A stretch of 64,000 bases of DNA, from NCBI GenBank assembly GCA_942491115.1, contig CALNZV010000019.1, forward strand, positions 42,142 to 106,141, in the 5' to 3' direction. The stretch comes from an uncultured Desulfobacteraceae bacterium (lineage in GTDB: Bacteria > Desulfobacterota > Desulfobacteria > Desulfobacterales > UBA5852). The position numbers and the translations under genes are program-made. Positions 10,697-52,615 of this stretch are shown in pieces; position 1 is the stretch's first letter, and each line of letters begins with the position of its first letter. A model generated the notes under the pieces. It worked only from the letters and a program-made list of their open reading frames with translations, was not told where the DNA came from and did no database searches.

Positions 10697-10979
10697 GAGC
10701 GCCTCGCAGTGTGACAGATTTACGGCAGGCCCATCGAGGCGGTTCCCTGGCAGCAGCGGCGAGCGGAGGGACTCTGGATGAACCGTCCAATGAAAGGCAG
10801 TGCAAATCGATCGGAGAATCGACGGGAACCGGGGACGAGTTTACAGAGCAATGGATTGAAGGTCAAGAAAGGGCCCCAGAAATAGGAACCGGCGCCCCAT
10901 CAGGATCCAGCGATGGTCCACGGATTTCGGGGAGAATGGAATGTCCTCAGGCAGCGGGGGGAAAGACTTTCCCGGAGAG

Positions 10980-11490
10980 CAGATGGCTCGATGTCCAAGA
11001 GGAGGTTAATGCCTCCGTCTGTTTGGACCATGCCGAGAATATGGCGGGAATCACCCCCCGTTCCCAGCCCCGGAATTGACTGGACATCCGAAGACCGGAT
11101 GGCCGGCACGTCAGAGACCGAATCGACGGCAATGCCCATTTTCGGGTGCATGTAGCGATGCATCAACCGCAGGTCGTCCAACTGGGGGAAGAGATCGCCT
11201 GTCTTGATGCCATCCGGCTCAGTCAAGACGTTTTTCAGCACCGGCACCTTCAGACCGACGGTTTTCTTCGGATCCAGGAATGCCATGCCGATCTCCTCGG
11301 CCCACTCGGGATTCTTCTCGATGACCCACCGGCCTCGACCAGAAGACTCACCAGTTCCTGAACCGCCTCCGGATGTGCGTCGATCAATTCCCGCCGCAAT
11401 GCCACGCCGCCACATGGGTGGTTCTCCCGGAGCTCACTGGAGAGACACTGGAGTTCTGCGACGCCGCCGGCAAATACCTTTGCCCCAGGT
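10980..11490 (-). pseudogene. Decayed chimera: C-terminal part of a NitT/TauT (CmpA/NrtA-like) solute-binding protein joined to the C-terminal half of a CheW domain
   Basis: AELQCLSSELRENHPCGGVAL..HPEAVQELVSLLVEAG, frameshift at about 11325, then IEKNPEWAEEIGMAFLDPKKTVGLKVPVLKNVLTEPDGIKTGDLFP..RYM..KMGI, then AVDSVSDVPAIRSSDVQSIPGLG..HILGMVQTDGGINLLLDIE (CheW-like). No credible start codon or N-terminal half. Confidence 0.7.
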
Positions 11491-12145
11491 CTGTGACTCC
11501 AAAGGCTGGGGTGGGCTTGGGGCAATAAAGAAGCAACGCTGCCGCATCAGGCAGAAAAAAACTAAAAATAAAAGACCTGACCCTCATTCACTTTTTACAT
11601 AGCCAGGAAACCAAATAGGGCTCCATTACTGATCGATTGAGAGTATCCCAAGAAAAGTGGGACTGCCAAATCGTGTGTTTACATACCAATCCTCAACGCA
11701 GAGCCAGACGTCTACCGGCTGCTTGTCTATTTAGACTGTCAATTTTTACTATGTGAAATCATGCTCGTCACCGTTCCATGGGCGTGAATGGTTCCTTCCT
11801 CATCCATTAAATTTACCTTCCGGAAATTCCCGACATAGAAAATTGCGGTTATTCAGGATTCTCCAGTACGGGTCTTGGCGGCCTTGGTGGCTCAGACAGT
11901 CGCCCAGCATCCGATCCGACACCCATTGACCGCCGATATGGACCGTCTAAAACTTTTTAGATAACCGAGTAGAAAATAGCTAATGACATCGCCTATGGCT
12001 TTCAGCCTTACACCAAATGGTATTGGTTTCAGCAGTTTTTCAGCGAGTGTCGAACAGGTTTTAAGCTGCCGCCTCAGAAGCAATGATCAAGGACTGTTTG
12101 TAGAAGGATATTCAAAGGATGGAGACCAAACGGAGACCAAAATAG

Positions 12146-12181
12146 ATCAGGGGCTTGCAGCAGACGCCGCAAGCCCCTGAT
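12146..12181. terminator. 13-bp perfect inverted repeat just downstream of tRNA-Phe (terminator and/or att-junction hairpin)
   Basis: ATCAGGGGCTTGC-N10-GCAAGCCCCTGAT. Confidence 0.7.
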
Positions 12182-12186
12182 TTCAG

Positions 12187-12262
12187 TGGTGCCGAGGGAC
12201 AGAATCGAACTGCCGACACGGGGATTTTCAGTCCCCTGCTCTACCGACTGAGCTACCTCGGC
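12187..12262 (-). tRNA. tRNA-Phe (GAA)
   Basis: GCCGAGG acceptor, TAGCTCAGTCGGTAGAGCA D-arm, GGGGA-CTGAAAA-TCCCC anticodon arm, GTTCGATT T-loop, encoded CCA; 76 nt. Confidence 0.98.
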
Positions 12263-12758
12263 AAGCGCAGATAATCACGGGAAGGATCGGGGGAGAATCC
12301 GGTAACGATCTATATCCCCGAAATGTGGGAAGGCTATATGGCATAGGCGTTTCGTTCTGTCAAGCGGTTTTGAGATGACCGGTATCATGGCATTGCCCGG
12401 TGTTGTCGACGGCGGTCGGCCCGGCTCATATCCGCCCTGTTCTCTTCTTTGTGTCCGAATCCATGGCTCGAACAGTGACACCCCCACCGATATATCCAAG
12501 AGAAAATACATGGTTTCCGAACTTGTAATTCCCATATTCGTGCTAAGTATATTGCGCATATGAACAAAACAAGGGACAATCATAGCCGCCGCCCCGTACT
12601 TTCCAACATCAGCGACAGAACGTGACTCCGGTTGCGGTCAACTCAAGCTCTCTCCACTTGCCGGAACCCACTGATGGAGGACAATCTCACCAACGGGGCA
12701 GGCCTTTGATGGTTACCTCGCTTTTCAAGCCCTTAATTCGACTTTTAAAAGGAGGTTT

Positions 12759-13577
12759 TTGATGGAAGACATTATCGCTAGAATTTATGAAATCCTGACC
12801 GTCTATGGCCTAAAGGTTCTGGCCGCTATCGTCATCCTCATTATTGGTCGCATCGTCTCAAAAATGGTTTCCAACATCGTGCACAAATTGATGCAGAAAA
12901 AAGATGTGGATCCCACCATCACCAGCTTTGTCAGCAACCTGACCTATTACGCGCTGTTCACCTTTGTCATTCTTGCGGCGCTGACCCGGTTGGGCATCCA
13001 GACGACCTCCTTCATTGCCGTTATCGGTGCCGCAGGCCTCGCGGTGGGCTTGGCCCTTCAGGGGTCCCTGTCGAATTTTGCAGCCGGCTTCCTGCTAATC
13101 ATTTTTAGACCTTTCAAGGTGGGAGACGTGATCGAAGGAGGGGGCACAACCGGCGCCGTCGAAAAAATCCAGATATTCACGACGACCCTGAGAACGCCCG
13201 ACAACAAAACCATTATCGTTCCCAACACCAAGCTCACCGACGACAACATCGTCAATTACTCAACCCAGGGGACCCGTCGGGTGGATATGGTGATGGGCAT
13301 CGGATACGGCGACGATATCGACAAGGCCCGGCAGATCATCTTTGACGTCATGGCGGCTGACGAACGAATTCTGAAAGACCCGAAACCCTCCGTCGCCGTA
13401 AGCGAGCTTGCGGATTCGAGCGTCAACTTCGTTGTCAGACCCTGGTCCACGGTTGCAGACTACTGGGGGGTGATGTTCGATACCACCGAGAAGGTCAAAA
13501 AGCGATTCGACGAAGAGGGCATCTCCATTCCCTTTCCCCAGCGGGACGTTCACCTCTACGAGCACAAGGCCGATTGA
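12759..13577 (+). CDS. mscS: Small-conductance mechanosensitive channel
   Basis: GLAVGLALQGSLSNFAAG, RPFKVGD, VPNTKL, TRRVD, GISIPFPQRDVH. AGGAGG RBS. Confidence 0.95.
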   Translation: MMEDIIARIYEILTVYGLKVLAAIVILIIGRIVSKMVSNIVHKLMQKKDVDPTITSFVSNLTYYALFTFVILAALTRLGIQTTSFIAVIGAAGLAVGLALQGSLSNFAAGFLLIIFRPFKVGDVIEGGGTTGAVEKIQIFTTTLRTPDNKTIIVPNTKLTDDNIVNYSTQGTRRVDMVMGIGYGDDIDKARQIIFDVMAADERILKDPKPSVAVSELADSSVNFVVRPWSTVADYWGVMFDTTEKVKKRFDEEGISIPFPQRDVHLYEHKAD

Positions 13578-34541: not shown

Positions 34542-34736
34542 AAAGAAGTAGAGGCAGTCGTTACCATCCCCCCCCCATTGCCGAGCCTTTGGGCACTATA
34601 TCGCCGGCGCACGGTGCCATTTCGGGTGTCTCAAAATTCCTTTTAAGAATTTCCGGTAGATCTGGTATTTATTTTGCTTATATCAACCGTCATTTTGCAG
34701 AATTAACGGACGATCAGGCAAGACCATTGAAAAGGG

Positions 34737-34764
34737 TTGACATGACGGGGATTTGGGATAAGAT
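34737..34764 (+). promoter_or_regulatory. Candidate sigma70 promoter for the ycbK-like gene
   Basis: TTGACA-N16-TAAGAT in an AT-rich intergenic region. Confidence 0.55.
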
Positions 34765-34816
34765 GCGCGACCATCCACAGAATAATAATTTATATAATCA
34801 TTTTAATGTATTGCCT

Positions 34817-35371
34817 ATGAACAACCATCCTTTGTCAAGGCGGCGTTTTCTGAGGGCCAGCCTATTGGCCCTCTCAGGGTTATGCCTTCCGATACCTCCA
34901 GCAGCCCTTGCCGCCATTACCCCCCCCGCCGATCGACGTATACATTTATACAACACCCATACGAATGAACACCTGAGCGTATGCTACTGCCACAACAATC
35001 GATACCACCCCGACGCAATGAATCGCATCAATCATATCCTAAGGGACCACCGAACGGGAGATGTCAGGCCAATATCCCCCAAGCTCATCGATATCGCCCA
35101 TGCCATCGGAGAGCGGTTGGGTGGCTCGCCCCAGATCCATATTATATCGGGTTACCGGTCTCCGGTCACCAATGCGAGGCTTCGTCAAAAGAGTCGGGGC
35201 GTGGCCAAGAAGAGCTACCATATGCAGGGACAAGCCGTCGATATCCGCATCCCTTCGATCCCCACCCATCGGTTGCGGCGGATTGCCAGGGATCTCAGGC
35301 TGGGAGGCGTCGGTTACTATGCCAAATCAGATTTCGTGCATGTGGATACCGGTCCGGTTAGGATCTGGTAG
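34817..35371 (+). CDS. YcbK/DUF882 (MepK-like, peptidase M15) Tat-exported peptidoglycan peptidase
   Basis: Tat signal SRRRFLR, LYNTHTNE, LRDHR, ISGYRSP.TN..LR, SYHMQGQAVD, FVHVDTG. Confidence 0.9.
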   Translation: MNNHPLSRRRFLRASLLALSGLCLPIPPAALAAITPPADRRIHLYNTHTNEHLSVCYCHNNRYHPDAMNRINHILRDHRTGDVRPISPKLIDIAHAIGERLGGSPQIHIISGYRSPVTNARLRQKSRGVAKKSYHMQGQAVDIRIPSIPTHRLRRIARDLRLGGVGYYAKSDFVHVDTGPVRIW

Positions 35372-35380
35372 GCGAGCGGA

Positions 35381-37180
35381 TCAGCCGATAGACAACCGCT
35401 CAGATAATGCGGTCGCCAGTGGTAAATCCCTTCCGTAGATGTCATTTCTGAAATGAAGTATCCCATCATCGCTCACCCATGCGGTCCAATAGAGCAGATG
35501 AATATCGATGGGCCGCTTTAGCTGCACCGTCAGTTTCTCCCCATTGTTCAGCCGGCTTTCGATCTGTCCGACGCTCCATTCATCCTGGCCTTTCAATAGG
35601 TATTCCGCTAGCCACAGGGGGCGCTCCACCCGTATGCAGCCCGAGCTATAACCACGACTGGCGGCCTCGAAAAGCCTACGGGCGGGGGTGTCGTGGAGAT
35701 AGACCGCAAATTTATTGGGAAACATGAACTTGATGCGACCCAGGGCGTTTTGAGGACCCGGATCCTGACGCAGCCGATAGGGAAAATTGCGACGATTGAT
35801 TTGGGGCCAATCGATGGCGAGGGGGTCCAGCTCGACGGCCGTTTCGGACCAGTTGGAAAACACACGAAAACCATTATCCTGAATAAAATGATAATCCCGT
35901 TGAATTTTTGGCAGCAGATCTTGCACGGCAAGTTTGTAAGGAACATTCCAGTAGGGATTCAGCACCAGATAGGTCATGCGACTGCTAAATACCGGCGTCT
36001 TGCGGAAAGGCCTTCCAACGATCACTTTCATTTCAGATGCCGGACGGCCATTTTCCACCACGGTTAAAGAAAAATCGGCAATATTGACCAAAAGATATCG
36101 CTCACCCAGGTCATGGGGTATCCATCTCCATCGCTCCATGTTGATTTCGATTTGCCGGACGCGTTCCTCCACCGTGACATTCAATTGCTCCCGGGTTTTT
36201 TTCCCGACAACACCGTCAGCTTCGATCCCGTGGCGCCGCTGGAAGGCTCTGACCGCCTCCTCGAGGGAGATATCGAAGAGATACCGATTGTCGCTATTCA
36301 CGTCGGTGAGATCACCGGACACGCTCAGCCGAGTTCTCAGAGCCTCCACACCAGGATCGTCGTCACCCAGTTTCAGACTTTCTCCATCAGGAACAAGGGG
36401 CCAACCGCCTGATTCGGCAATGGCTCTGTAGGTCGCCAAAGCCTTTTTCATCCCGACATACCCGACATGGGATGGGTGCAAACCGCTCAGGGCCTCCTTT
36501 ACGCGCTGGGTTTCAATCGCCTCCTCGAGCAAGCGGCTTAAATCCAATTCAACCTGGAAGGCGATCCACTCACTGTGAATCGTTTCAGGGTTCACCCTTC
36601 CGCCGTAGAGATGGGAGCCAAGCAGAAGGAAGGCATCCGTCATGAGAATGTCTGCCTCCCCAAGGATTTTGATATGGATGGGCATTCCCAGTTGAAGCTT
36701 CAAATCGATCTCTTCAACCAACCGTTCAATGGCCGACAGGTGATAAACCGAAGGAACGAGGCCATAGTCTTTTGCGCTGCGGATGCACGTCAACAAGTCA
36801 AATGCCTGGGATGAAATATTTTCAGAGGTTATCCATGCGGGTTCATAATGCCGTCGCTGGTAAAAGCCCGGCAGCAAGCTGGGGCCGCAGATGAGCTCTC
36901 CTGCACAGGAAAACGTGGCACTGGTGCTCCTGCTTTCGATAAGGGTACGGATATGTTCGGATTCGCTCGAAAGGCTGTCGATCGGTCCCGCCCCTTGGTC
37001 GGGGACGGCCCAGCCTTTGGTTGAAAGACACATCAATGTCAATAAAGATAGAACGATCGCCCAGGTGACACATCCCAGAAACGGAAGGGAATTCGAGGGG
37101 AAGTTGGATGTTCCGGGTGCCACGTGTGAGTGCCTCCTTGTGATCACTTTGCTGTGAGGGTGGTAGGAGTCGCCGATCAT
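35381..37180 (-). CDS. YcbB/LdtD-like L,D-transpeptidase with PG-binding domain (true start may lie downstream)
   Basis: AVRAFQRRHGIEADGVVG, NMERWRW, VIVGRPFRKTP, NPYWNVP, LGRIKFMFPN..VYLHDTP, SSGCIRVE. Confidence 0.92.
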   Translation of the reverse strand: MIGDSYHPHSKVITRRHSHVAPGTSNFPSNSLPFLGCVTWAIVLSLLTLMCLSTKGWAVPDQGAGPIDSLSSESEHIRTLIESRSTSATFSCAGELICGPSLLPGFYQRRHYEPAWITSENISSQAFDLLTCIRSAKDYGLVPSVYHLSAIERLVEEIDLKLQLGMPIHIKILGEADILMTDAFLLLGSHLYGGRVNPETIHSEWIAFQVELDLSRLLEEAIETQRVKEALSGLHPSHVGYVGMKKALATYRAIAESGGWPLVPDGESLKLGDDDPGVEALRTRLSVSGDLTDVNSDNRYLFDISLEEAVRAFQRRHGIEADGVVGKKTREQLNVTVEERVRQIEINMERWRWIPHDLGERYLLVNIADFSLTVVENGRPASEMKVIVGRPFRKTPVFSSRMTYLVLNPYWNVPYKLAVQDLLPKIQRDYHFIQDNGFRVFSNWSETAVELDPLAIDWPQINRRNFPYRLRQDPGPQNALGRIKFMFPNKFAVYLHDTPARRLFEAASRGYSSGCIRVERPLWLAEYLLKGQDEWSVGQIESRLNNGEKLTVQLKRPIDIHLLYWTAWVSDDGILHFRNDIYGRDLPLATALSERLSIG

Positions 37181-42453: not shown

Positions 42454-43938
42454 ATGATCACGCTGACATCAGCATCAGTTCATCGATTACAGACCGATCT
42501 AATGATCATACCGGTTTGGGAGTCCCCGGTCGGTCACTGGAATCCACAGATTACCGACTGGATCCAGCGGGCAGTGGCACTCTCGGAATTTACTGCAAAA
42601 CCCGGCGATACCCAGATTCGCTTCGATATCGATGGGACTCGAACGCCCCGTGTCGCCTTTTTGGGACTGGGAAAACCCGACGCGTCCCCAACCGAAAGTC
42701 TAAGACGGATGGCCGGCAAGGGGGTAAAAGAGGGGATCGACCGGCGATTGTCTGATCTGGTCATCGTCATGCCGGACATGGAATCGGTCGGGATTTCGGA
42801 AACCCTTGTTGTGGAAGCCATCGCCGAAGGGGCACTTCTGTCCAATACCGTTTCGGATCGATATAAAACCGCTACCGACGGACCGGCACCGGTTAAATCC
42901 ATTCGAATCCTGCTCCAATCCACAAAACGATCCGCCTATAAACCGATCGTCGCCCGGGTTCAAAACATTTGTGCCGCGACGCTTCACGCCAGGGACTGGG
43001 TCAATACGCCCTCCAATCATAAACGGCCGAAATCTCTGGCAGACATCATCTGCCGTACCGCTGAAGGCAGCGGTCTAAAGACCGCGATTCTGACCCGGGA
43101 GCAGCTTCGCCGGCAGAAAATGGGGGCCCTGTTAGCCGTCGGGGCCGGCAGCGACAGTCAGCCGGTGCTCGTCACGATGGAGCATCGCCCGAAGAAGGCC
43201 ACCAAGACCGTTGCCCTTATTGGCAAAGGAATCACTTTCGACACGGGTGGCTATAATATCAAGCCGACCGGCTCCATGGAATCGATGAAAGTCGATATGG
43301 CCGGGGCCGCCGCCGTTGCCGCCACGATGTTGGCAGCGCCGGCGTTAAAGCTCAATGTTCGCCTTGTCGGGTTGCTGCCCATCGCCGAGAACATGGTGTC
43401 CGGTCAGGCCTACCGACCCGGTGACGTCGTGAATACCCACTCGGGGAAAACGGTTGAAATCGGCAATACCGATGCCGAAGGGCGGTTGATTCTTGCGGAT
43501 GCCATTTCCTTCGCCGTCAAACGGTTTTCACCGGACCTGATCATCGATGTGGCGACATTGACGGGTGCATGCGTCGTGGCATTGGGAGAATCCATTGCCG
43601 GCGTTTTTTCACCGGACGATAGGCTTAGGGATGCCATTCGGAAGGCCGGAGAGGCCGTCAACGAACCCTGCTGGCCCTTGCCGATGCCCGATGAGTACCG
43701 GGAATTGTTGAAAAGCGAAATTGCGGACCTCAGAAACATCGGATCCACGCGCTGGGGAGGGGCCATCCTGGCGGCCATTTTCCTTTCCGAATTCGTCGGA
43801 ACCACCCGGTGGGCCCACATCGACATTGCCGGACCGGCCTCAGCCAAAAAAGCCTCGGCCTATTGCGAATCGGGAGCCACCGGTTTCGGCGTCCGACTGC
43901 TGTGCCGAATGTTGGAAGACATGGCCGATGGGATCTAA
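42454..43938 (+). CDS. pepA: Leucyl aminopeptidase (M17)
   Basis: IGKGITFDTGG, MKVDMAGAA, NTDAEGRLILADA, ATLTGA, WAHIDIAG. Confidence 0.96.
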   Translation: MITLTSASVHRLQTDLMIIPVWESPVGHWNPQITDWIQRAVALSEFTAKPGDTQIRFDIDGTRTPRVAFLGLGKPDASPTESLRRMAGKGVKEGIDRRLSDLVIVMPDMESVGISETLVVEAIAEGALLSNTVSDRYKTATDGPAPVKSIRILLQSTKRSAYKPIVARVQNICAATLHARDWVNTPSNHKRPKSLADIICRTAEGSGLKTAILTREQLRRQKMGALLAVGAGSDSQPVLVTMEHRPKKATKTVALIGKGITFDTGGYNIKPTGSMESMKVDMAGAAAVAATMLAAPALKLNVRLVGLLPIAENMVSGQAYRPGDVVNTHSGKTVEIGNTDAEGRLILADAISFAVKRFSPDLIIDVATLTGACVVALGESIAGVFSPDDRLRDAIRKAGEAVNEPCWPLPMPDEYRELLKSEIADLRNIGSTRWGGAILAAIFLSEFVGTTRWAHIDIAGPASAKKASAYCESGATGFGVRLLCRMLEDMADGI

Positions 43939-44248
43939 CCCGGATATGTCAGGTGTTGGCGGCGTTCATCGGCCAGGCATTCAAGGGCGCCGCCGACCGT
44001 TGGTACAGAAAGCCCTTGATGACGCCGCATATGGAAGCCTCCGACGCGCCCCCAGGGGGACTATTTTTGGGGGTTTTTGCCATTCCGCCGGGGGACAAAC
44101 GGCTTCCGGGGTCCTGCTACCGAAACAGGCGCTAACCATAAGATATCATATATCATTTTGACATTTAGAAAAAATTTTCATGACATATTCGGGCTAAAGG
44201 GGCGGATTCAAGCGGTCATGCATCAATACCGGGGAGAACGCACCCGCT

Positions 44249-44797
44249 TTACCTCAGAAGGTAGGATTTGGGGCCGAAGGGAACCGGATGATAGTCCTCT
44301 TCGGTGATCTCTGGCTCGACCTCAGGCGTCATCAAAACCACCTCCGGTTCAATATCCGCAATGGACTCAACGACGGATTCGGGCCCCTTCGACTGACGGG
44401 ACGACGGCTCCTGCCGCTGGTATCTGGCCAGAAACGTTTTGGGCAAAGGGGATCGATTGGTGACCAGACGGACGGGAATCAGCACTTTGTCTCCCACGAC
44501 GACCCGCGAATTCACCAGCCACGGGGTCGCCTCGACCAGAGCCGGCCAGTTCCGATAATCCCCTGTATACCATTTGGCAATAATGGAGAGGGTTTCACCT
44601 GGCCACCGTATCTGGTGGATCAAGTGGGGGCTATTTTTCGTCGACGATTTACCGGTCGTGGTGCCAGCAAGGGGAGCCGCAGGTACCGCCTCCGGCGGCG
44701 AGAGTTTTGGTTTGAGCATCGAACAGCCGACCATCACCGATAGGAGCGCAGCGGTGACAAGAAGACGGCACGTTCGGATCTCTGCTTTCCCGGTCAT
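44249..44797 (-). CDS. Small lipoprotein with LysM-like domain and Pro/Glu-rich tail
   Basis: Lipobox MVGC; PGETLSIIAKWYTGDYRNW..VVVGDKVLIP. Confidence 0.8.
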   Translation of the reverse strand: MTGKAEIRTCRLLVTAALLSVMVGCSMLKPKLSPPEAVPAAPLAGTTTGKSSTKNSPHLIHQIRWPGETLSIIAKWYTGDYRNWPALVEATPWLVNSRVVVGDKVLIPVRLVTNRSPLPKTFLARYQRQEPSSRQSKGPESVVESIADIEPEVVLMTPEVEPEITEEDYHPVPFGPKSYLLR

Positions 44798-46560
44798 TTG
44801 GGCGCCTTATCCTCGCCGCGAAGCCGGTGAAGGTAGGTCACGGCTTGACGATTATTCGGATTGACCTCGACGGCGAGGGCCAACTGACGGATGGCCATTT
44901 CTCGCTTTCCACGTTTTTCCTGCACCATTGCCAAGTTATACAGGGCTTCGTCCAGATAGGGAGGTGCCATCTCCACCACCTGGAGATAGCGCTTCTCTGC
45001 TTCGGGGAGTTGCCCGGATTCCGCATATGCATAGGCCAAATTGAAAACAGCGTTATGCAGGCTGGGATGATTATCGACAACTTGAGAAAAAACCTCAATA
45101 GCTTGAGGGTAGGACTCCAGACGAACGTAGGCATAGCCGAGATTGAAAAGCAGTTGTGGGTCGTCGGGCGCCATCAACAGGCCTTGCTTCAAGATATCGA
45201 CCGCTGCGGAGGGATTCGATTCCAGAAGCTCCGAGGCCTGCTCCAGAACAAGTGAAATGCTTGCCTTCTCTTGATCACTTGCGGTTTCTTGGGACTCTGA
45301 AAGGGTCTGTCTGCGGTCGCCAGCAGGCTTGATGTCTTCCACTGTACCCCGGATCGCATAGGCGCTGGGGCTATCACCTACAGAATAACTGGTTAGCCGT
45401 TTCGACACGACCATGAACAATCCGATACCGATCGCCAGGCAAACCACCATCACCGGCAGATAGCGACCCCTAAACCGACGGTGCCACTCCTCGACAACAC
45501 CCGGCGACACCATGGTCACCGTACGACCGGCCTCGTCGCGAGCCCTGTCCGACATCAGGGCGATGGAGGCGGCGGTATCGGAACTGACAGACGTTTTTAG
45601 GGGCATCATCAGCGAGAGCGCGCGGTCTTCCTCTCGCTTCGTTTCGTCGAACTGGCTTCGAACGAACTGCCCCAACTGACGGGTGTCGGAGCGCTCCGGC
45701 AGCGCTTCGATACAGTTTTCCAAATCGGAAAGCATCTCTCCACAGTCCGGATAACGGTCCTCCGGGTTCCGGGCCAGAGCCCGATCCATCACTGGGTGGA
45801 GCCCCGGGGGCAATCCGGGTGTCGTAACCGCCGCCGACACATACCGAGCGGTTCTGACCTGCTCAAGGATCTCCAGAGGATTGCCCTGGAACATCCGTTT
45901 TCCCGTCACCAGTTCATAAAGCAGGACCCCCAGGGCAAAAACATCCGACCGCCTGTCCACCGGTTTCCCCGTGGCCTGCTCCGGTGACATATAGGCTGCC
46001 TTGCCCTTGATGACACCGGATTGGGTACAGGAACTCCTGCCGGCGGCCTTGGCGATACCGAAATCCAGAATTTTTACCAACCCTGAATAGCCAATGAACA
46101 CATTTTGAGGGTTCACGTCCCGGTGGACGATTTGCAAACCCTGCCCCTTGTAGTCGGTCAGGTTGTGGGCGTAGTCGAGGCCTGCACAGATCCGTGAAAT
46201 CACGTGAAGGGCGTGCTTCAGCGCCAGAGGCATGCCGTTTTGACGACAGCAGTCCATGACCTGTCGAAGATCTTTGCCAACCAGATATTCCATGGCCATA
46301 AAGTACCGGTTCCCCATGCAGCCGAAATCATAAATCTGAACAATATTTTCATGCTGAAGAAATGCGGCCAGTTTGGCCTCGTCGATGAACGACTCGACCA
46401 CTTCCGGTTGGGCACAGAACTGGGGAAGAATGCACTTGATGGCCACCAGCTTTTCAAACCCCTGGTCGCCGGTAATTTTCCCTAAGAACAACTCTGCCAT
46501 ACCGCCGACGGCAATCCGTTCCAACAACTGGTATTTCCCGAACTGGGTGATTTGATCCAT
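44794..46560 (-). CDS. Hanks-type Ser/Thr protein kinase with TM helix and C-terminal TPR repeats
   Basis: IAVGGMAELF, VAIK, HRDVNPQN, DFG, GKAAYMSPE, DVFALG; TM YLPVMVVCLAIGIGLFMVVS; TPRs FNLGYAY, FNLAYAY, YNLAMVQ. Confidence 0.95.
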   Translation of the reverse strand: MDQITQFGKYQLLERIAVGGMAELFLGKITGDQGFEKLVAIKCILPQFCAQPEVVESFIDEAKLAAFLQHENIVQIYDFGCMGNRYFMAMEYLVGKDLRQVMDCCRQNGMPLALKHALHVISRICAGLDYAHNLTDYKGQGLQIVHRDVNPQNVFIGYSGLVKILDFGIAKAAGRSSCTQSGVIKGKAAYMSPEQATGKPVDRRSDVFALGVLLYELVTGKRMFQGNPLEILEQVRTARYVSAAVTTPGLPPGLHPVMDRALARNPEDRYPDCGEMLSDLENCIEALPERSDTRQLGQFVRSQFDETKREEDRALSLMMPLKTSVSSDTAASIALMSDRARDEAGRTVTMVSPGVVEEWHRRFRGRYLPVMVVCLAIGIGLFMVVSKRLTSYSVGDSPSAYAIRGTVEDIKPAGDRRQTLSESQETASDQEKASISLVLEQASELLESNPSAAVDILKQGLLMAPDDPQLLFNLGYAYVRLESYPQAIEVFSQVVDNHPSLHNAVFNLAYAYAESGQLPEAEKRYLQVVEMAPPYLDEALYNLAMVQEKRGKREMAIRQLALAVEVNPNNRQAVTYLHRLRGEDKAPK

Positions 46561-46759
46561 AATCAGGCACCGGATCCGTCGAAGGCAGTTTGCGAAAATT
46601 TAAAGTATATCAGAGGGGTTAAAGCACGTCAAGCCGACGGCGCCCGCCATTGGTTCGACATCGGCCGGGAGCGACGATTCTCCGGTAGAATGGCCTTTTC
46701 AGCGCTGATACGGGTTTAAAAAAGCAGGCGGGCGGGCCGGGGGGATGTCATCGGGCCGG

Positions 46760-47869
46760 TCACGGAACCGGGGCGGCAGGTTGTTTTTTCTTCAGCGCCC
46801 TTAAGAGCTCTTTGGCTTCCCTGATGCTGGAGGCGGCTTTGGAATGGTCCGGATTGTAAACCATTGCTTTTTCCCATTCCTGAATCGCCAATTCCAGCTC
46901 TTCGTCAATAAAGTACTTGACCCCCAACCGATAGAACTCCTCGGCCATGCCATCCATCATCGTCTCGAGACTGTCCATGGAAGACTTGAGATCGGGCCAA
47001 CCGGCATCGATTTTTCTTAACAGCGACATGGCCTCTGGGTAACGTTTTTGAAACCGCAAGCGCTTGGCCTCTTCAAAAAGCGAAGCGTGGTAGATCCATG
47101 CGGCCTCGGTATTCAAAGGGCTCGCCTCCAATAGATGACCCGCAGCCTCGGCTGCGGCCTCATAGCTGCCGTCCTCAAAGAGCCGGCGAGCGCTTTGGAG
47201 GTCATCCTCAGTAACGGTTTTCTTTGGGGATTTCGGTAATGTAGGTATCCGACGGGTCCTTGGGACCCGAGGTGGCGTCTCAGGGGACGACGGCAGTTCC
47301 ATTCTCGGGATCCGAAGCAGGGTACCCGGTGTCGGTTGCACCGATGGATCCAAATCATTGAATCTGGCGATAAGGACGGCCTTCTTTCCGTCACCATAGT
47401 AGCGTTGCGCCAAAGACTCGAGGGTTTCCGCGGAACCGATGACATGATCGTCATAACGCGGTTCTTCGGCGATTCGATACAAATATGACAAGGCTTGCTT
47501 GTGCTCTGAGTTGATGCGCAGCGCCGTCAGAAATTCACGACGGGCAGTGGTTGTATCTCCCTTTTCCGATGCCAAGACCCCACGTTGGAAGTGCCGGTCG
47601 GACTGCAGGAGAACTTGATCCTTCAAACGACCGATGTTGGCGGAGGAATCGGGATCGACCGGATCGAGAGACCCGATGACACTCCAGGTCAGCAAGGCTG
47701 CCTCCAAATCGCCTTCGCGCTCGAATGCAGCAGCGTTCTCGCGGTATGCGGTGAGGGTCTCCGGATCCGCATGCCATGACGATACCGGTACGTTTTGGAG
47801 ATTCGCACATCCGGCCCAAAGGAGGCCCGCAAGGGTGGCTGCAGCTATAAGGCGCAGTGGAAGACTCAT
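46760..47869 (-). CDS. Lipoprotein with TPR - LysM - TPR architecture
   Basis: Lipobox WAGC; TPRs HFQRGVLA, FYRLGVKYF; LysM AETLESLAQRYYGD..IARFN..PGTLLRIP. Confidence 0.88.
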   Translation of the reverse strand: MSLPLRLIAAATLAGLLWAGCANLQNVPVSSWHADPETLTAYRENAAAFEREGDLEAALLTWSVIGSLDPVDPDSSANIGRLKDQVLLQSDRHFQRGVLASEKGDTTTARREFLTALRINSEHKQALSYLYRIAEEPRYDDHVIGSAETLESLAQRYYGDGKKAVLIARFNDLDPSVQPTPGTLLRIPRMELPSSPETPPRVPRTRRIPTLPKSPKKTVTEDDLQSARRLFEDGSYEAAAEAAGHLLEASPLNTEAAWIYHASLFEEAKRLRFQKRYPEAMSLLRKIDAGWPDLKSSMDSLETMMDGMAEEFYRLGVKYFIDEELELAIQEWEKAMVYNPDHSKAASSIREAKELLRALKKKQPAAPVP

Positions 47870-48888
47870 TCAGAATCGATCGGTTTGAATGTCTTGATCA
47901 GGTTAAGAAATTCACCGACCTCCATGGTGGGTGTCACGATGGTTCGTCCCAGTCGATACCGGTCTCTGAAAAACGGGGGTGGCCTGCCGTCGGTCGTGAA
48001 AGCGGCCTCGTACCCGGTTTTTTCGGCAAAAGCCGCCGATAACGATGACCCGGCACCGGACGGGTAGGACAGAAAACGACACGGCCTGCCGATGTTCTCC
48101 TCGATGGCGGTTTTGGATCCAACCAACTCCAGTTCAAGGTTGACCAGATACGTCTCAAATGCTTCGCCCGGTTCCGGATTGGCGAATGTCAAACGGCTCC
48201 GACCCCGACTTTGAATGTCAACCCCATTGGCCGACAGTTCTGAGAGCTGTTCCCAGGTCAGATGACCTTCCGAACCGACGCGATCGGTCTGAACGAACAA
48301 GGAAACAGGATAGCCGAACTGCCGAATGACAGGATAGGTATGCATAAAAAAACCAGCGTGGGGATCATCGAAGGTAATGACGAGTGACCGGCTGGGAAGC
48401 CTGGTTTCGAATTCTAGAAATTTCAGCAACTGGGGAAGAGAAATGACCGTGTAGTCAAAGGTTCGAAGGGCGGACATCTGCCGTCGAAATTGGTCTTTCA
48501 GACGGCTGTCAGCCAGCGGATCCGACACCTCCGGCCATGAATAGACAAATATGGGCACCAACTGATAGCCGTTTTCTACCACCCCGCCCATTCGGTAGGG
48601 TCTGAGAGGAATCAAAAGGGTCTGTCCCGGCGTCAGTACCTGTGCCCGATTGAACTCTTTGACAAACCATGACAGGGACGGGTCTTTCAGGTAGCGAAGG
48701 GCAATGGAGGAGAAGGTGTCGCCCTCCTCCACCTTGGCGATCAGAAAATCAGACGGCGGTGTCACTTCCCGGGGCATCATGCAGGCCGTCAGCCAGATGC
48801 ACGCCCCCAGAATTGTTGCCGTCATTAGTGGACGATAGAGCAATCTCCACCTCTCTGCCGGCAGGCGATCATCGCAGGGTGAGGGCAC
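47866..48888 (-). CDS. Lipoprotein with LysM and a NodB/PgaB-like polysaccharide deacetylase domain lacking the metal-binding His residues
   Basis: Lipobox LTAC; GDTFSSIALRYLKD..FN..PGQTLLIP; ITFDDP, LTWEQLSEL, IQSRGRSR, LSYPSG. Confidence 0.88.
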   Translation of the reverse strand: MPSPCDDRLPAERWRLLYRPLMTATILGACIWLTACMMPREVTPPSDFLIAKVEEGDTFSSIALRYLKDPSLSWFVKEFNRAQVLTPGQTLLIPLRPYRMGGVVENGYQLVPIFVYSWPEVSDPLADSRLKDQFRRQMSALRTFDYTVISLPQLLKFLEFETRLPSRSLVITFDDPHAGFFMHTYPVIRQFGYPVSLFVQTDRVGSEGHLTWEQLSELSANGVDIQSRGRSRLTFANPEPGEAFETYLVNLELELVGSKTAIEENIGRPCRFLSYPSGAGSSLSAAFAEKTGYEAAFTTDGRPPPFFRDRYRLGRTIVTPTMEVGEFLNLIKTFKPIDSE

Positions 48889-50533
48889 GGTAGATGGCGA
48901 CCGGTTCCGACCGCCCCCTTAGTTCCTGAAGCGGCATGGCCTCCACATTGACCAACGCCTTTACCCCGTCATAAACCGATTTTGAAATGATGGTATCTCC
49001 GGATCCAGCCATGGCATTTATTCGGGAGGCAACATTGACGGCATCACCGATGACGGTATATTCCATTTTGCTTGCTGAGCCGATATTGCCTGCAACGACG
49101 ACTCCGCTGTGAACACTGATGCCCACGGATCTGAGAAGATCCTTTTCACTTCCGACTGTTGAAAGGGAGCGTTGAATTTCGATGGCTGCCACGACCCCTT
49201 TTGCCCTGTGGTCGGCACTATAAACCGGCACCCCGAAAACCCCCAGAACCGCGTCTCCGATGAACTTATCCACATAGCCGCCGTTTTCAATGATGACACG
49301 AGTGGCAATTTCAAAGTATTCGTTGAGTTCCTCGACGAGAGCCGCAGGATCTTTTCCCTCTGAATAGCTGGTAAACCCTCTGATGTCAGCAAAAAGAATA
49401 GTGGCCTCGCACAAACGACCCTTTAACCACGCACTGCCCGGGCTGGCAAGGATCATGTCGGCCACCTGACTGCCAACGTATTTGCCGAAGGATTTCTGCA
49501 TGAGTTGGTTTCTGAACAGCTCCTCACTCATGCGGTTGAAAGCAGATGCCAAATCGCCGAACTCGTCATTTCGTCCGAGCTCGATCCGATGACGGTAATT
49601 ACCCCTTCCGATTTCCTGGGTAGCGTTGACGAGGCGGAACAACGGGTCGGAGAACCAAAACCCCATTACAAAGGTAATAATGAGGCCGGCGAATATGACC
49701 GGAAGCGTCATCATGAGAAGGGAATCCCGTTCCTGGCGAATACTCGTTTCGATGGAGTCAATGGACACCCCCACATGGGCAAAGCCCATTAACTTGTCTT
49801 TGAAACGGACCGGTTTTTCCAGGTTGAGAATGCCGGCACCTGAAGGGAGGCGGTATGTGAAAAAGGACACTTCCCCCAACTCCTGCCGGGAAACCGTCGG
49901 CGCCACCGGATCATACCGGTTTCCCAAGCGATCCAGATCGCTATGGGCCCGAATGATGCCGTCGGAATCGATAATCAAGGCGTAGGCAAGGCCTTCGACC
50001 GCCTTGACGTCGTTGATGAGCGAATTAAGCTTGAGCTCATTCCCTTCCAGTAAATGAATTCTCGCCGCATTGGCAAAGTAGTTCAGGCTGATGGCACCAA
50101 TCATCACCGACTGGTTGTAAAGACGCTCTTTTTGATGCTTCAATATAAAATAGCTCGACACCAGCACCACCGTCGCCATCATCACCGCTGCGGTGGTGGT
50201 CAGCTGCACCCAAATGGGAATACGGGGCCGGCGCCGGAACCCCAAACCAGCCCCTTTATCGGTCCGGAAATAATCACGATTGATCGTCGGCAGCTGTGTA
50301 CCGTCATATCCGCAAAACGTCCGTAAAATGGATAAGGCCGCGCTTTTCGATATCCACCCTTTGTCCACCGCGTGTTGGCTCAGCGCCTTGGCCTTTGGCC
50401 CGGACTCGCCATGGCGCTCTTCCTTCAATGCCTTGAGCTGGTCCTCCGAGACGAGGCCGGTCATCAGCAGTCCGTTTTCAAAGGCGATTTCGATCTTATT
50501 CACGTCGCCCGCGCCGGAGCTTCCATCAGACAT
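48869..50533 (-). CDS. Membrane class III adenylate cyclase (N-terminal helical domain, TM-sensor-TM, HAMP, cyclase)
   Basis: HAMP PLFRLVNATQEIGRG..DEFGDLASAFNRM; FADIRGFT, DKFIGDAV, EYTVIGDAVNVASRI. Confidence 0.93.
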   Translation of the reverse strand: MSDGSSGAGDVNKIEIAFENGLLMTGLVSEDQLKALKEERHGESGPKAKALSQHAVDKGWISKSAALSILRTFCGYDGTQLPTINRDYFRTDKGAGLGFRRRPRIPIWVQLTTTAAVMMATVVLVSSYFILKHQKERLYNQSVMIGAISLNYFANAARIHLLEGNELKLNSLINDVKAVEGLAYALIIDSDGIIRAHSDLDRLGNRYDPVAPTVSRQELGEVSFFTYRLPSGAGILNLEKPVRFKDKLMGFAHVGVSIDSIETSIRQERDSLLMMTLPVIFAGLIITFVMGFWFSDPLFRLVNATQEIGRGNYRHRIELGRNDEFGDLASAFNRMSEELFRNQLMQKSFGKYVGSQVADMILASPGSAWLKGRLCEATILFADIRGFTSYSEGKDPAALVEELNEYFEIATRVIIENGGYVDKFIGDAVLGVFGVPVYSADHRAKGVVAAIEIQRSLSTVGSEKDLLRSVGISVHSGVVVAGNIGSASKMEYTVIGDAVNVASRINAMAGSGDTIISKSVYDGVKALVNVEAMPLQELRGRSEPVAIYRALTLR

Positions 50534-50865
50534 ACCATTCGCTCTCTATCATCATTGAGGGTACGACGTTATTCCTTGGGCCGATCGGTGACGTATCGCA
50601 CGGGCGGTCGAGCCATTAGCGCAGGCGCCGGGGGGTTGATGATCGACACCAGCAGCAATGCGGGTCGGCCGGGGACCGGGAGATGGACCGAACGGTTGAC
50701 GGTCATCCCGAAATCGATCAGGTGCGCGGCGTCGACATCGATATTGGAGCAAATGAGGTGCCCCCTGTCCTTATCCAACCTAGTTTTACTATCGGATGGC
50801 CGATGGGCTGTCAACGGACAAAGGCCCAGGTAATCTCCCGGTTCGTCGACTGACGGGGGACCGGT

Positions 50866-51738
50866 TTATTCGGATTCATGGGGCTGTATTCCCGTTTCGA
50901 TAGTGCTGAGGCATCGACTCAGGCAAAGGAATTCCTCCACGGAAAGGGTTTCCGCCCGCCGGGTGGGGGAAATCTGCGCCATGGAAAGGGCATCCGTTAT
51001 ATGATCCTGCCATTCGGGGTGACCGGCGCCGGCGAGGGCATTCTTCAGGGTTTTCCGTCGCTTGGAAAAGGCCGATCGAACGACCTCGAAGAAATGGTTT
51101 TCTTGGGATTCCGTCATCCTTTCGGTATCAGCGAATTGTATGTCAAGGACGGTGGAGTTCACCTGGGGTCTTGGAAAAAACCGCGATGCATCAACGCCCA
51201 TCAGCTTTGAAACCTGGGAGCAGTATTGAAGTATTACCGAAATTCGGCCATAATCTTTGCCACCCGGCGCTGCCAGGAGGCGGTCTGCGAGTTCCCTCTG
51301 GAACATGAACACCGCCTTTCTGAACCGACGACGATAGGCGATCAAGCGAAGGACAATCTGGGTGGAAATGCTGTAGGGAAGATTGCCGACCGCTACCCAT
51401 TGCCCGCCTTCCGGCTCCGGCAGGTCGTCCATCGATAACTTCAAAAAGTCGGCCTGCCGGATATCCACATTGTCCAGACCGGCCAGGGTCAGTTCCGCGC
51501 TCAACAGGCTGATAAAACGAGCGTCCTTTTCAATGGCAACAACAGAGTGGACAGCGGTTGCAAGGGGAACGGTCAGCGCCCCCAAACCCGGTCCGATTTC
51601 TAGCACGCGATCGGTCTCAGACAAGCGTGCTTTCTTCACAATGGTTTCTGCGACGGCGGTGTCGCACAGGAAATTCTGCCCCCATCGCTTTTTGGCTTTG
51701 AGGTCCCAGGCTTTGAGCAACACTCGAGGCGAAGTCAT
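50866..51738 (-). CDS. rsmA: 16S rRNA m6,2A dimethyltransferase KsgA
   Basis: KKRWGQNFL, LEIGPGLG, EKD, GNLPYSIST, FQRE, FFPRPQVNS, RRAETLS. Start set at the ATG at 51738. Confidence 0.96.
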   Translation of the reverse strand: MTSPRVLLKAWDLKAKKRWGQNFLCDTAVAETIVKKARLSETDRVLEIGPGLGALTVPLATAVHSVVAIEKDARFISLLSAELTLAGLDNVDIRQADFLKLSMDDLPEPEGGQWVAVGNLPYSISTQIVLRLIAYRRRFRKAVFMFQRELADRLLAAPGGKDYGRISVILQYCSQVSKLMGVDASRFFPRPQVNSTVLDIQFADTERMTESQENHFFEVVRSAFSKRRKTLKNALAGAGHPEWQDHITDALSMAQISPTRRAETLSVEEFLCLSRCLSTIETGIQPHESE

Positions 51739-52237: not shown

Positions 52238-52615
52238 ATGCCTGCCAGGAAAAAAGAGAAAAAAGTCAGCTTCGACGCCATGGTCAAGTTTTTCATCCAC
52301 CACTATGGCATACCGACCCGGAAAGACGTCGAGAAGCTGGTGCTCAAGATCGACAATCTCGAAAAACTCGTCAAGGCTACCGCTGCCAAAGGTTCCGGCG
52401 GCCGGGGACGACGCTCCGGCAAGGGCGGAGTTGCGGAGACAGCCTTGGACCAGGTGTTCAACGTCATCAAAAAGGCCAAAAACGGCGCGACGTTTTCGGA
52501 TATCCAGTCGAAGACGGGATTCGAGGACAAGAAAATCCGAAATATCATCTTCCGGCTTAACAAACTGGGTAAAATCGCTCGCAAACGCCGAGGTGTTTAT
52601 ATCTTGGCAGGCTGA
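52238..52615 (+). CDS. Small basic protein with C-terminal winged-helix; candidate DNA-binding protein
   Basis: AAGGAGG RBS; K/R-rich; VFNVIKKAKNGATFSDIQSKTGFEDKKIRNIIFRLNKLGKIARKRRGVY. Confidence 0.8.
   Translation: MPARKKEKKVSFDAMVKFFIHHYGIPTRKDVEKLVLKIDNLEKLVKATAAKGSGGRGRRSGKGGVAETALDQVFNVIKKAKNGATFSDIQSKTGFEDKKIRNIIFRLNKLGKIARKRRGVYILAG

Follow-up and report, generated by a model that had tools for sequence, protein, structure and literature searches.

What five adjoining genes at positions 44249-50533 of a 64,000-nucleotide stretch of DNA from an uncultured Desulfobacteraceae bacterium (hereafter the window) do for their host, and whether they do it together, is the question addressed here. 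They encode a membrane-bound class III adenylate cyclase, three lipoproteins with LysM domains and a Hanks-type Ser/Thr kinase with tetratricopeptide repeats (TPRs), and the original prediction had read them as a single unit for envelope surveillance. All five co-oriented genes, with the domains claimed for them, are present on the minus strand, as judged from the listing of open reading frames (ORFs), Pfam matches and structure models. Rather than one five-gene unit, however, they make up two modules, a triad of the cyclase and two lipoproteins and a pair of the kinase and the third lipoprotein. We give an even chance to the view that these two conserved modules together form a composite signalling system, located in the periplasm and associated with the cell wall, and as such the cluster points to an undescribed route of cell-wall monitoring in double-membraned bacteria.

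Module 1 consists, from upstream to downstream, of its transmitter, the 554-aa cyclase (48869..50533); a 340-aa lipoprotein joining a LysM domain to a polysaccharide deacetylase domain of carbohydrate esterase family 4 (CE4) (47866..48888); and a 369-aa TPR-LysM-TPR lipoprotein (46760..47869), which serves as family marker. These were identified from the ORF listing and Pfam, with an AlphaFold2 (AF2) model in addition for the third. Module 2 consists of its transmitter, the 588-aa kinase (44794..46560; ORF listing and Pfam), and a 182-aa LysM lipoprotein, called SMALL here (44249..44797; ORF listing, AF2 and Foldseek).

Relatives were numbered as loci L001, L002 and so on, the window clade being the window together with L002-L004. 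A pattern scan of metagenome contigs, with the TPR-LysM protein as bait, returned 80 loci at 26-35% identity with otherwise unrelated flanks, and the domains of the five window proteins were mapped by phmmer onto the six-frame ORFs of all loci. The LysM-CE4 gene lies immediately upstream of the TPR-LysM gene in every one of the 56 loci with at least 900 bp of upstream sequence, and an intact ORF for an sCache sensor and cyclase lies upstream of the CE4 gene in 36 of the 40 loci with at least 2.8 kb. Among the four exceptions the cyclase is split by a frameshift in L025 and L088, another transmitter is found in L020, and none in L086. All-against-all clustering of the flanking ORFs brought out no conserved neighbour in the 80 loci other than the triad. 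The TPR-LysM family is itself large: an exhaustive profile search gave about 850 representatives (50%-identity clusters) at E<=1e-30, mostly full-length matches of 330-460 aa, and the members whose annotation was looked up are called only 'TPR repeat protein'. Word-indexed searches with the protein or with a 15-sequence profile had given only 8-12 relatives, TPR words having swamped the candidate list, and the family size was corrected by the metagenome pattern scan together with the exhaustive hidden Markov model search. By the locus counts and the size of this family, the cyclase/CE4/TPR-LysM triad is a widespread module whose order and strand are kept in nearly all of the 80 loci. Its taxonomic breadth is poorly defined, since the scan of a genome collection, for which the peptide patterns were narrow, gave only 4 loci; labelled relatives come from Desulfobacterales, Desulfobulbaceae, 'Thermodesulfobacteriota bacterium', Syntrophorhabdales, Syntrophobacterales and 'Deltaproteobacteria bacterium'.

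The first three relatives of the TPR-LysM protein (80, 51 and 46% identity) are Desulfobacterales-type loci with the same five genes, and they also keep the housekeeping flanks, namely rsmA, M16 and M17 peptidases and a hybrid histidine kinase, so that conservation of the five genes in close relatives alone says little. Co-occurrence beyond such relatives, set beforehand as a test by which the prediction might be refuted, was found for the triad, which turns up in dozens of loci whose flanks are unrelated. The kinase and SMALL have a distribution of their own. A SMALL homologue stands directly after a kinase-TPR gene, usually overlapping it, in five of the six contexts looked up; SMALL follows the kinase-TPR gene also in L003, L004, L017, L021, L052 and L087, and all five genes are present in L091 and L092. 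Together with those found ahead of SMALL homologues at other loci, the window kinase belongs to a single coherent group of orthologues, whose motifs are intact.

The kinase-SMALL pair very likely has its own promoter, to judge from the sequence of the 199-bp gap that separates it from module 1. The sigma-70-type candidate at 46604..46632 consists of TTGACG, a 17-nt spacer and the extended -10 element TGATATACT, and scores 10/12 with a TG extension in a promoter scan. Neither the -35 hexamer nor the TTAACCCCTCTGATA block (spacer and extended -10) changes across the window, L002, L003 and L004; the -10 hexamer varies at two positions within the window clade (TATACT/TATATT/AAACTC). Since the remainder of the gap is unconserved, this TTGACG/TGATATACT block is the only conserved element in it, which is the ground for assigning the promoter to the pair.

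The functional linkage of the two modules is nevertheless well supported by comparative genomics, in that they adjoin in at least two separate clades in differing arrangements. The window clade has the order cyclase-CE4-TPR/LysM, then kinase-SMALL; a second clade (L017, L021, L087, L091, L092) has kinase-SMALL-cyclase-CE4-TPR/LysM, and in L052 the kinase pair and the triad run divergently. In neighbour-joining trees of the CE4 and cyclase domains the second five-gene clade is nested among kinase-less triads, apart from the window clade. Two gene fusions are informative as well. At L005:2087-3784 a sensor of the form transmembrane (TM) helix-sCache-TM helix, 28% identical to the cyclase sensor (E 5e-11), is joined to a Hanks kinase domain that shares 42% identity with that of the window kinase, and the fusion gene precedes the CE4 and TPR-LysM genes. 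At L020:1364-3442, on the minus strand, the same sCache sensor followed by HAMP is fused to HisKA-HATPase-REC, again beside the CE4 and TPR-LysM genes. With a cyclase in this place elsewhere, the periplasmic sensor and the two lipoproteins are thus constant and the cytoplasmic output is interchangeable, which is the pattern expected of an inward-signalling input module. The kinase domain of L005 reads IV-VG where DFG is expected, and may be a pseudokinase or the product of an assembly error.

Several observations weigh against the composite system. The evidence for linkage of the modules is genomic throughout; the 80 loci are partly redundant, and the neighbour-joining trees are crude. Kinase-TPR genes stand beside only 3 of the 18 triads with at least 2.5 kb on both sides, the other 15 lacking the pair, and the kinase-SMALL pair occurs with no triad nearby in L090 (a complete 'Deltaproteobacteria bacterium' genome), L093 and L094. 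Given its conserved promoter in the gap, the kinase pair may be transcribed separately. In the second five-gene clade, taken to include L052 (L017, L021, L052, L087, L091, L092), the cyclase domain is degenerate and HAMP is absent: Gly replaces the first metal-binding Asp, Lys the Asn and Ser the Arg (the genes concerned are, for example, L091:7582-8955 and L092:7583-8842). The CE4 domain of this clade is intact, the mirror image of the window clade described below. The protein with the degenerate domain may be a pseudo-cyclase receptor that signals through the neighbouring kinase, and among five-gene clades only the window clade has both cyclase and kinase catalytically complete. The dual output of cyclic AMP (cAMP) and phosphorylation that had been predicted therefore remains plausible for the window clade, but it is not general.

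From the same observations it could be argued that the two modules are independent and only chance neighbours in the window lineage, the triad signalling by cAMP alone while the kinase and SMALL constitute a separate cell-wall kinase system. The pair's own conserved promoter, the 15 of 18 well-flanked triads that have no kinase nearby and the solitary pairs of L090, L093 and L094 would all follow, and the synteny of the housekeeping flanks implies that conservation within the window clade is partly plain ancestry. Independence is harder to reconcile with the adjoining of the modules in a second, separate clade in another order and orientation, with the L005 gene, in which a module 1 sensor is joined to a module 2-type kinase domain beside the module 1 lipoproteins, and with the degenerate cyclase of the other five-gene clade, where output looks as if it had moved to the kinase. 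On this evidence independence is considered unlikely.

The cyclase has the Pfam architecture sCache_3_2, HAMP and Guanylate_cyc, the last with an E value of 1.5e-22. By hydropathy, TM helices at residues 107-131 and 272-290 flank the sCache_3_2 domain (residues 163-267; 49733-50047), which therefore lies outside the cytoplasm; HAMP (residues 293-339; 49517-49657) and the catalytic domain (residues 376-541; 48911-49408) follow. Class III cyclases are diagnosed by two metal-binding Asp, a substrate-specifying Lys with Asp or Thr, and a transition-state Asn and Arg. The window protein, in line with what had been noted earlier, keeps all six positions (D383, K423, D427, T493, N500, R504), with Lys and Thr of the purine type, and by its sequence it is catalytically complete. 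The closest solved catalytic domains are CyaB1-type, Pseudomonas aeruginosa CyaB (3r5g) and PAC cyclases. Residues 1-100 (50234-50533) form, from the layout, a cytoplasmic N-terminal extension that matches no Pfam family even at E 10. It carries two 'G(L/W)(V/I)S..(Q/A)L' repeats, restricted in the phmmer mapping to the window clade (L002-L004); a resemblance to the T2SSE_N/MshEN motif was an impression only, which Pfam at E 10 did not support.

The kinase (Pkinase, E 1.2e-35, with multiple TPR families in Pfam) has its cytoplasmic catalytic domain at residues 14-269 (45754-46521), a single TM helix by hydropathy at residues 368-386, and TPRs at about residues 446-575 (44836-45225). The TPRs, separated from the kinase domain by this one helix, are outside the cytoplasm. 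VAIK (K42), HRD146-148, DFG166-168 and SPE192-194 are intact, as expected of a protein that, from its sequence, is catalytically complete. The best NCBIfam model is PknB_PASTA_kin, which covers residues 8-388 only and scores 269.8 against a cut-off of 450. Neither Pfam nor NCBIfam gave a match to PASTA repeats in this kinase, its extracytoplasmic part being TPR, and in the NCBIfam scan of all five window proteins nothing rose above any curated cut-off.

The presence of a LysM fold in all three lipoproteins was borne out, although the 182-aa SMALL protein has no Pfam match and required a structure model. Its AF2 model, built from 34 homologues, has a beta-alpha-alpha-beta core at residues 58-108 (44474-44626) with pLDDT (the AF2 confidence measure) of about 90 and the elements E58-62, H70-78, H81-90 and E104-108. 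Foldseek ranks 1-27 are nearly all LysM-containing proteins, with probability up to 1.0, among them Kbp, a Thermus NlpC/P60 LysM protein, plant LysM receptors and LysM subunits of phage baseplates, and a profile of seven SMALL relatives found 526 homologues, most with Pfam LysM or LysM2_NFP. The family is laid out as a lipobox, a Pro-rich linker, the LysM core, a segment of the type LLKTxxPMPKxFV and an acidic stretch, then FGPK at or near the C-terminus (window 44261-44284, with PFGPK at residues 173-177, 44267-44281, from the alignment). Among the 34 homologues F174, P176 and K177 never vary, G175 is kept in more than 90%, and in many of the proteins FGPK is the very C-terminus. Since the classical ligands of TPR domains are short C-terminal peptides, the FGPK tail is proposed as a candidate ligand for the periplasmic TPR domain of the kinase. 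L052 has, in addition to the copy after its kinase, a second SMALL gene (L052:9167-9658, minus strand) that has no FGPK tail and is encoded on the other strand, downstream of the TPR-LysM gene.

In the TPR-LysM protein Pfam recognises TPR and a weak LysM. The AF2 model (mean pLDDT 76) places helical repeats at residues 36-133 and 221-362, a LysM domain at residues 139-188 (47306-47455; E139-143, H150-158, H161-170, E184-188) and a disordered Pro-rich linker at residues 191-217. With a lipoprotein signal peptide and no TM helix, the protein carries its LysM domain and its two TPR blocks on one side of the membrane, by AF2 and hydropathy, and a hub of the FimV/HubP type, which was also considered, does not fit this topology. 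The three lipoboxes named in the original prediction are all in place, each after a hydrophobic stretch: LTAC (C36; 48781-48792) in the CE4 protein, WAGC (C21; 47807-47818) in the TPR-LysM protein and MVGC (C25; 44723-44734) in SMALL. The motif is conserved in 67 of 73 N-termini of the TPR-LysM family and 45 of 48 of the CE4 family. In Escherichia coli a residue other than Asp at position +2 directs a lipoprotein to the outer membrane. The residue is Met, Ala and Ser, and thus not Asp, in the three window proteins, and Ala in most family members, so that by the E. coli rule, which may not hold in these organisms, all three would be located in the outer membrane.

The CE4 protein had been described as a LysM-deacetylase, and its two domains are indeed there: a LysM at residues 52-94 (48607-48735), weak in Pfam at 19.5 bits against a cut-off of 20.9, and Polysacc_deac_1 (E 2.2e-12) at about residues 113-331. 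The window protein matches IcaB (4wcj; 2.4e-11) and PgaB in the PDB, and a profile of its family aligns to PgaB (4u10, 3vus, 4f9d), BpsB (5bu6) and IcaB (4wcj) with E values of 1e-23 to 1e-30, sharing with PgaB and IcaB the permuted motif order YH...DD...HxxxH...YPYG. The metal ligands of E. coli PgaB include two His of HxxxxH. Its active-site residues are His55, Asp114 and Asp115 (PMC7112194). Most members of the CE4 family keep the full PgaB/IcaB-type catalytic set (YH, DD, HxxxH, YPYG), but the window protein, which retains the Asp pair (D174/D175), has S117 at the catalytic His and R228/R232 at the two metal-binding His. The S117 column is His in 94% of relatives outside the window clade; R228 and R232 fall on the two His of the family motif QCHTKTHR, of which the second is His in 96% of the same relatives. 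The three closest orthologues, L002-L004, likewise keep DD, the catalytic His being S, Q or R across the clade and the metal-binding His being replaced by Leu, Arg or Thr in L002-L004. With the catalytic and both metal-binding His replaced, the window protein is very probably a pseudoenzyme, at odds with the earlier description, and probably acts as a glycan-binding one. Wall-binding CE4 lipoproteins without catalysis are not without precedent: BA0330 and BA0331 of Bacillus anthracis have the CE4 fold, lack deacetylase activity and aid cell-wall stability and shape (PMC4505593).

That most family members have an active CE4 domain allows the roles to be reversed, with the lipoproteins as effectors and not sensors, and this too counts against the composite sensing system. 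The triad would then be mainly a glycan-modifying machine, in which CE4 deacetylates peptidoglycan or exopolysaccharide with the TPR-LysM protein as its scaffold, in the manner of NlpI or the TPR part of PgaA, and the Cache-cyclase senses the product (acetate, for example, or a deacetylated fragment) or regulates expression. Besides the catalytic set, the proposal can draw on sCache_3_2, which is a small-molecule-binding fold of the DcuS/CitA type, on weak NCBIfam DcuS/MalK matches to the window cyclase, and on the NlpI adaptor complexes that appear among the generic TPR matches when Foldseek is run with the TPR-LysM model. What makes it doubtful is that the window clade has lost the catalytic and metal-binding His and yet keeps the CE4 gene, its LysM and the whole cluster, so that catalysis is dispensable for whatever holds the module together; nor is any glycosyltransferase or export gene conserved beside the triad in the 80 loci. 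That the cluster belongs instead to anti-phage defence or to control of a type VI secretion system (T6SS), as a Pycsar-like cyclase, a PD-T4-6-like kinase or a PpkA/Fha/PppA-type pathway, is ranked least likely and seems very improbable, for although the PADLOC models PycC and PD-T4-6 match the catalytic domains of cyclase and kinase, and VgrG/PAAR genes adjoin the five genes of L091 and FHA and PP2C genes follow the clusters of L091 and L092, the PADLOC matches are limited to generic catalytic domains, the cyclase is a two-TM membrane receptor with purine-type Lys/Thr and no cytosolic pyrimidine cyclase as Pycsar membership would have it, the 64-kb window was found to contain neither a cyclic-nucleotide-binding (CRP-type) effector gene nor genes for FHA or PP2C proteins, defence and T6SS genes are not conserved in the flanks of the 80 loci, and no GC anomaly was seen over the cluster region.

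The composite signalling system, to return to it, is proposed to work as follows. The sCache domain, the TPRs and all LysM domains are periplasmic by topology, as given by lipoboxes and hydropathy. The LysM lipoproteins would bind an envelope glycan containing N-acetylglucosamine (GlcNAc), most probably peptidoglycan, which is the obvious candidate because the module is not accompanied by genes for polysaccharide synthesis; a LysM preference for peptidoglycan over other GlcNAc polymers is here assumed, which is a further point to be held against the scheme. TPR surfaces would supply protein contacts, by which the lipoproteins may report the state of the glycan to the sCache domain in module 1 and to the TPR domain of the kinase in module 2, the latter relay perhaps passing via the invariant acidic-FGPK tail of SMALL. 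The signal would then be converted to cAMP and Ser/Thr phosphorylation, and the catalytically dead CE4 domain of the window would act only as a binder of glycan or of a partner. Ligand, direction of signalling and physical contacts are all inferred. A more specific form, which is put forward tentatively and at somewhat less than an even chance, is that of a tripartite periplasmic receptor widespread in sediment Desulfobacterota: two LysM lipoproteins, a PgaB-like CE4 enzyme or pseudoenzyme and a TPR scaffold, would read peptidoglycan and signal to an sCache_3 domain whose output is swapped between cyclase, Hanks kinase and histidine kinase, and in some lineages, that of the window among them, the receptor would be wired to a TPR-kinase/LysM pair docking by FGPK, giving a diderm counterpart of sensing by PASTA kinases.

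The junctions between the genes are for the most part as first described, with ATGA overlaps at 47866-47869 and 44794-44797 and the gap at 46561-46759, but the third overlap, of the cyclase and CE4 genes at 48869-48888, depends on the choice of start and arises only with the longest CE4 ORF, which begins at GTG. A TTG start at 48843, with GAGAGG 6 nt upstream, or an ATG start at 48825, the position of the called start in the L002 orthologue, is at least as plausible from the sequence and would leave a gap of 25-43 nt after the cyclase gene. No terminator stronger than shuffled sequence was found after the TPR-LysM gene (z -0.08), and an Rfam scan of 43900-51000 gave a single sub-threshold chance match. 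The promoter of module 1 presumably lies within the 332-nt non-coding stretch at 50534-50865, between rsmA and the cyclase gene, both on the minus strand. In L001, an independently assembled Logan contig (ERR9669538) with the sequence of window 44.2-50.6 kb, the cyclase and CE4 genes are each called as two genes, probably through assembly or sequencing frameshifts and not biology; its TPR-LysM, kinase and SMALL genes agree with the window.

Further away, an ORF of 125 aa with no Pfam match lies at window 52238-52615 on the plus strand, between rsmA and a PreP-like M16 peptidase gene, and a 125-aa gene is called at the equivalent position in L002, L003 and L004. A Peptidase_M15_2/DUF882 peptidase (window 34589-35371, plus strand) and a YcbB-like L,D-transpeptidase (Scaffold, PG_binding_1 and YkuD; window 35381-37180, minus strand) are encoded 7-10 kb from the cluster, which puts peptidoglycan-remodelling genes in its wider neighbourhood; syntenic counterparts are an L,D-transpeptidase gene in a 35.8-kb L002-type contig and an M15 peptidase gene in L004. 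In the second clade, the five genes of L091 are preceded by genes for VgrG and a PAAR-peptidase (T6SS spike), in L092 by genes for an FHA-SLT lytic transglycosylase and an FHA-GAF-HisKA protein, and FHA and PP2C genes follow in both (L091:1-4993 and 10841-12526; L092:2059-5114 and 11412-13139).

Peptidoglycan sensing in diderms is far less understood than sensing by PASTA kinases in Gram-positive bacteria, and the module described here has separable parts: a sensor domain, two lipoproteins predicted to bind glycan, and interchangeable outputs. Hundreds of its sequence clusters exist in environmental Desulfobacterota, with annotation that goes no further than 'TPR repeat protein', and they hold natural experiments in active as against dead CE4, active as against dead cyclase, and fusions of the sensor to a kinase or a histidine kinase. 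If the composite reading is true, cAMP signalling, which has been little studied in these anaerobes, becomes tied to the cell envelope. The original prediction had recognised no characterised system of this composition, and full-text literature searches for the domain combination brought up no description of it.

Among known systems the FimV-FimL-CyaB pathway of P. aeruginosa is similar in that an envelope protein with LysM and TPR governs a membrane class III adenylate cyclase; FimV is reported to modulate cAMP through activation of CyaB (bioRxiv 10.1101/116954). CyaB (3r5g) is, moreover, among the nearest solved relatives of the window catalytic domain. FimV, however, combines in one large inner-membrane protein a LysM on the periplasmic side with TPRs in the cytoplasm and acts via FimL and the Chp system, whereas LysM and TPR in the window are on separate, wholly periplasmic lipoproteins; the window cyclase has its own periplasmic sCache sensor and HAMP, and there are no conserved pilus genes nearby. 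The TagQRST-PpkA-PppA-Fha1 pathway of the H1-T6SS of P. aeruginosa is likewise found in a diderm, where the outer-membrane lipoprotein TagQ and the periplasmic protein TagR stand above a Hanks kinase of the inner membrane, which reacts to stress on the envelope (PMC7817224); the L091 and L092 clusters share with it FHA and PP2C genes. LysM and cyclase are lacking in that pathway, and FHA, PP2C and T6SS genes are lacking in the window. PpkA, moreover, has a periplasmic domain of the von Willebrand factor A (vWA) type in place of TPRs.

With the PASTA kinases (PknB/PrkC/Stk1) the window kinase shares an extracytoplasmic domain thought to read the cell wall and its best, though sub-threshold, score on PknB_PASTA_kin; it differs in having TPRs and no PASTA, in the placing of the putative glycan binder on a separate LysM lipoprotein, and in its diderm host. 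PgaB is a lipoprotein that works with the TPR protein PgaA. To the profile alignment and permuted motif order that connect the CE4 protein with PgaB and IcaB can thus be added the pairing of a lipoprotein with a TPR partner, but the window protein has an additional N-terminal LysM, no C-terminal glycoside-hydrolase-like domain and no catalytic or metal-binding His. A pga/ica operon for poly-GlcNAc is likewise not what is found here, as synthase or porin genes of the pgaC, pgaD or pgaA type are neither conserved in the flanks of the 80 loci nor present in those of the window. BA0330 and BA0331 are also wall-associated CE4-fold lipoproteins that lack catalysis (PMC4505593), but they belong to a Gram-positive host and another CE4 subfamily, have a fibronectin-type accessory domain and show no link to signalling genes. 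RcsF, NlpE, NlpI and LpoA/B of E. coli are comparable as lipoproteins that span the periplasm or touch peptidoglycan and control inner-membrane signalling or wall enzymes; here the similarity is one of generic TPRs, and the partners are a cyclase and a Hanks kinase in place of a phosphorelay, Cpx and penicillin-binding proteins. As the defining features of each fail, the cluster belongs to none of these systems. Its building blocks, and the general idea of envelope sensing assisted by lipoproteins, are known already; what appears to be undescribed is the conserved triad, the interchangeability of its outputs and its coupling to a TPR-kinase/LysM pair.

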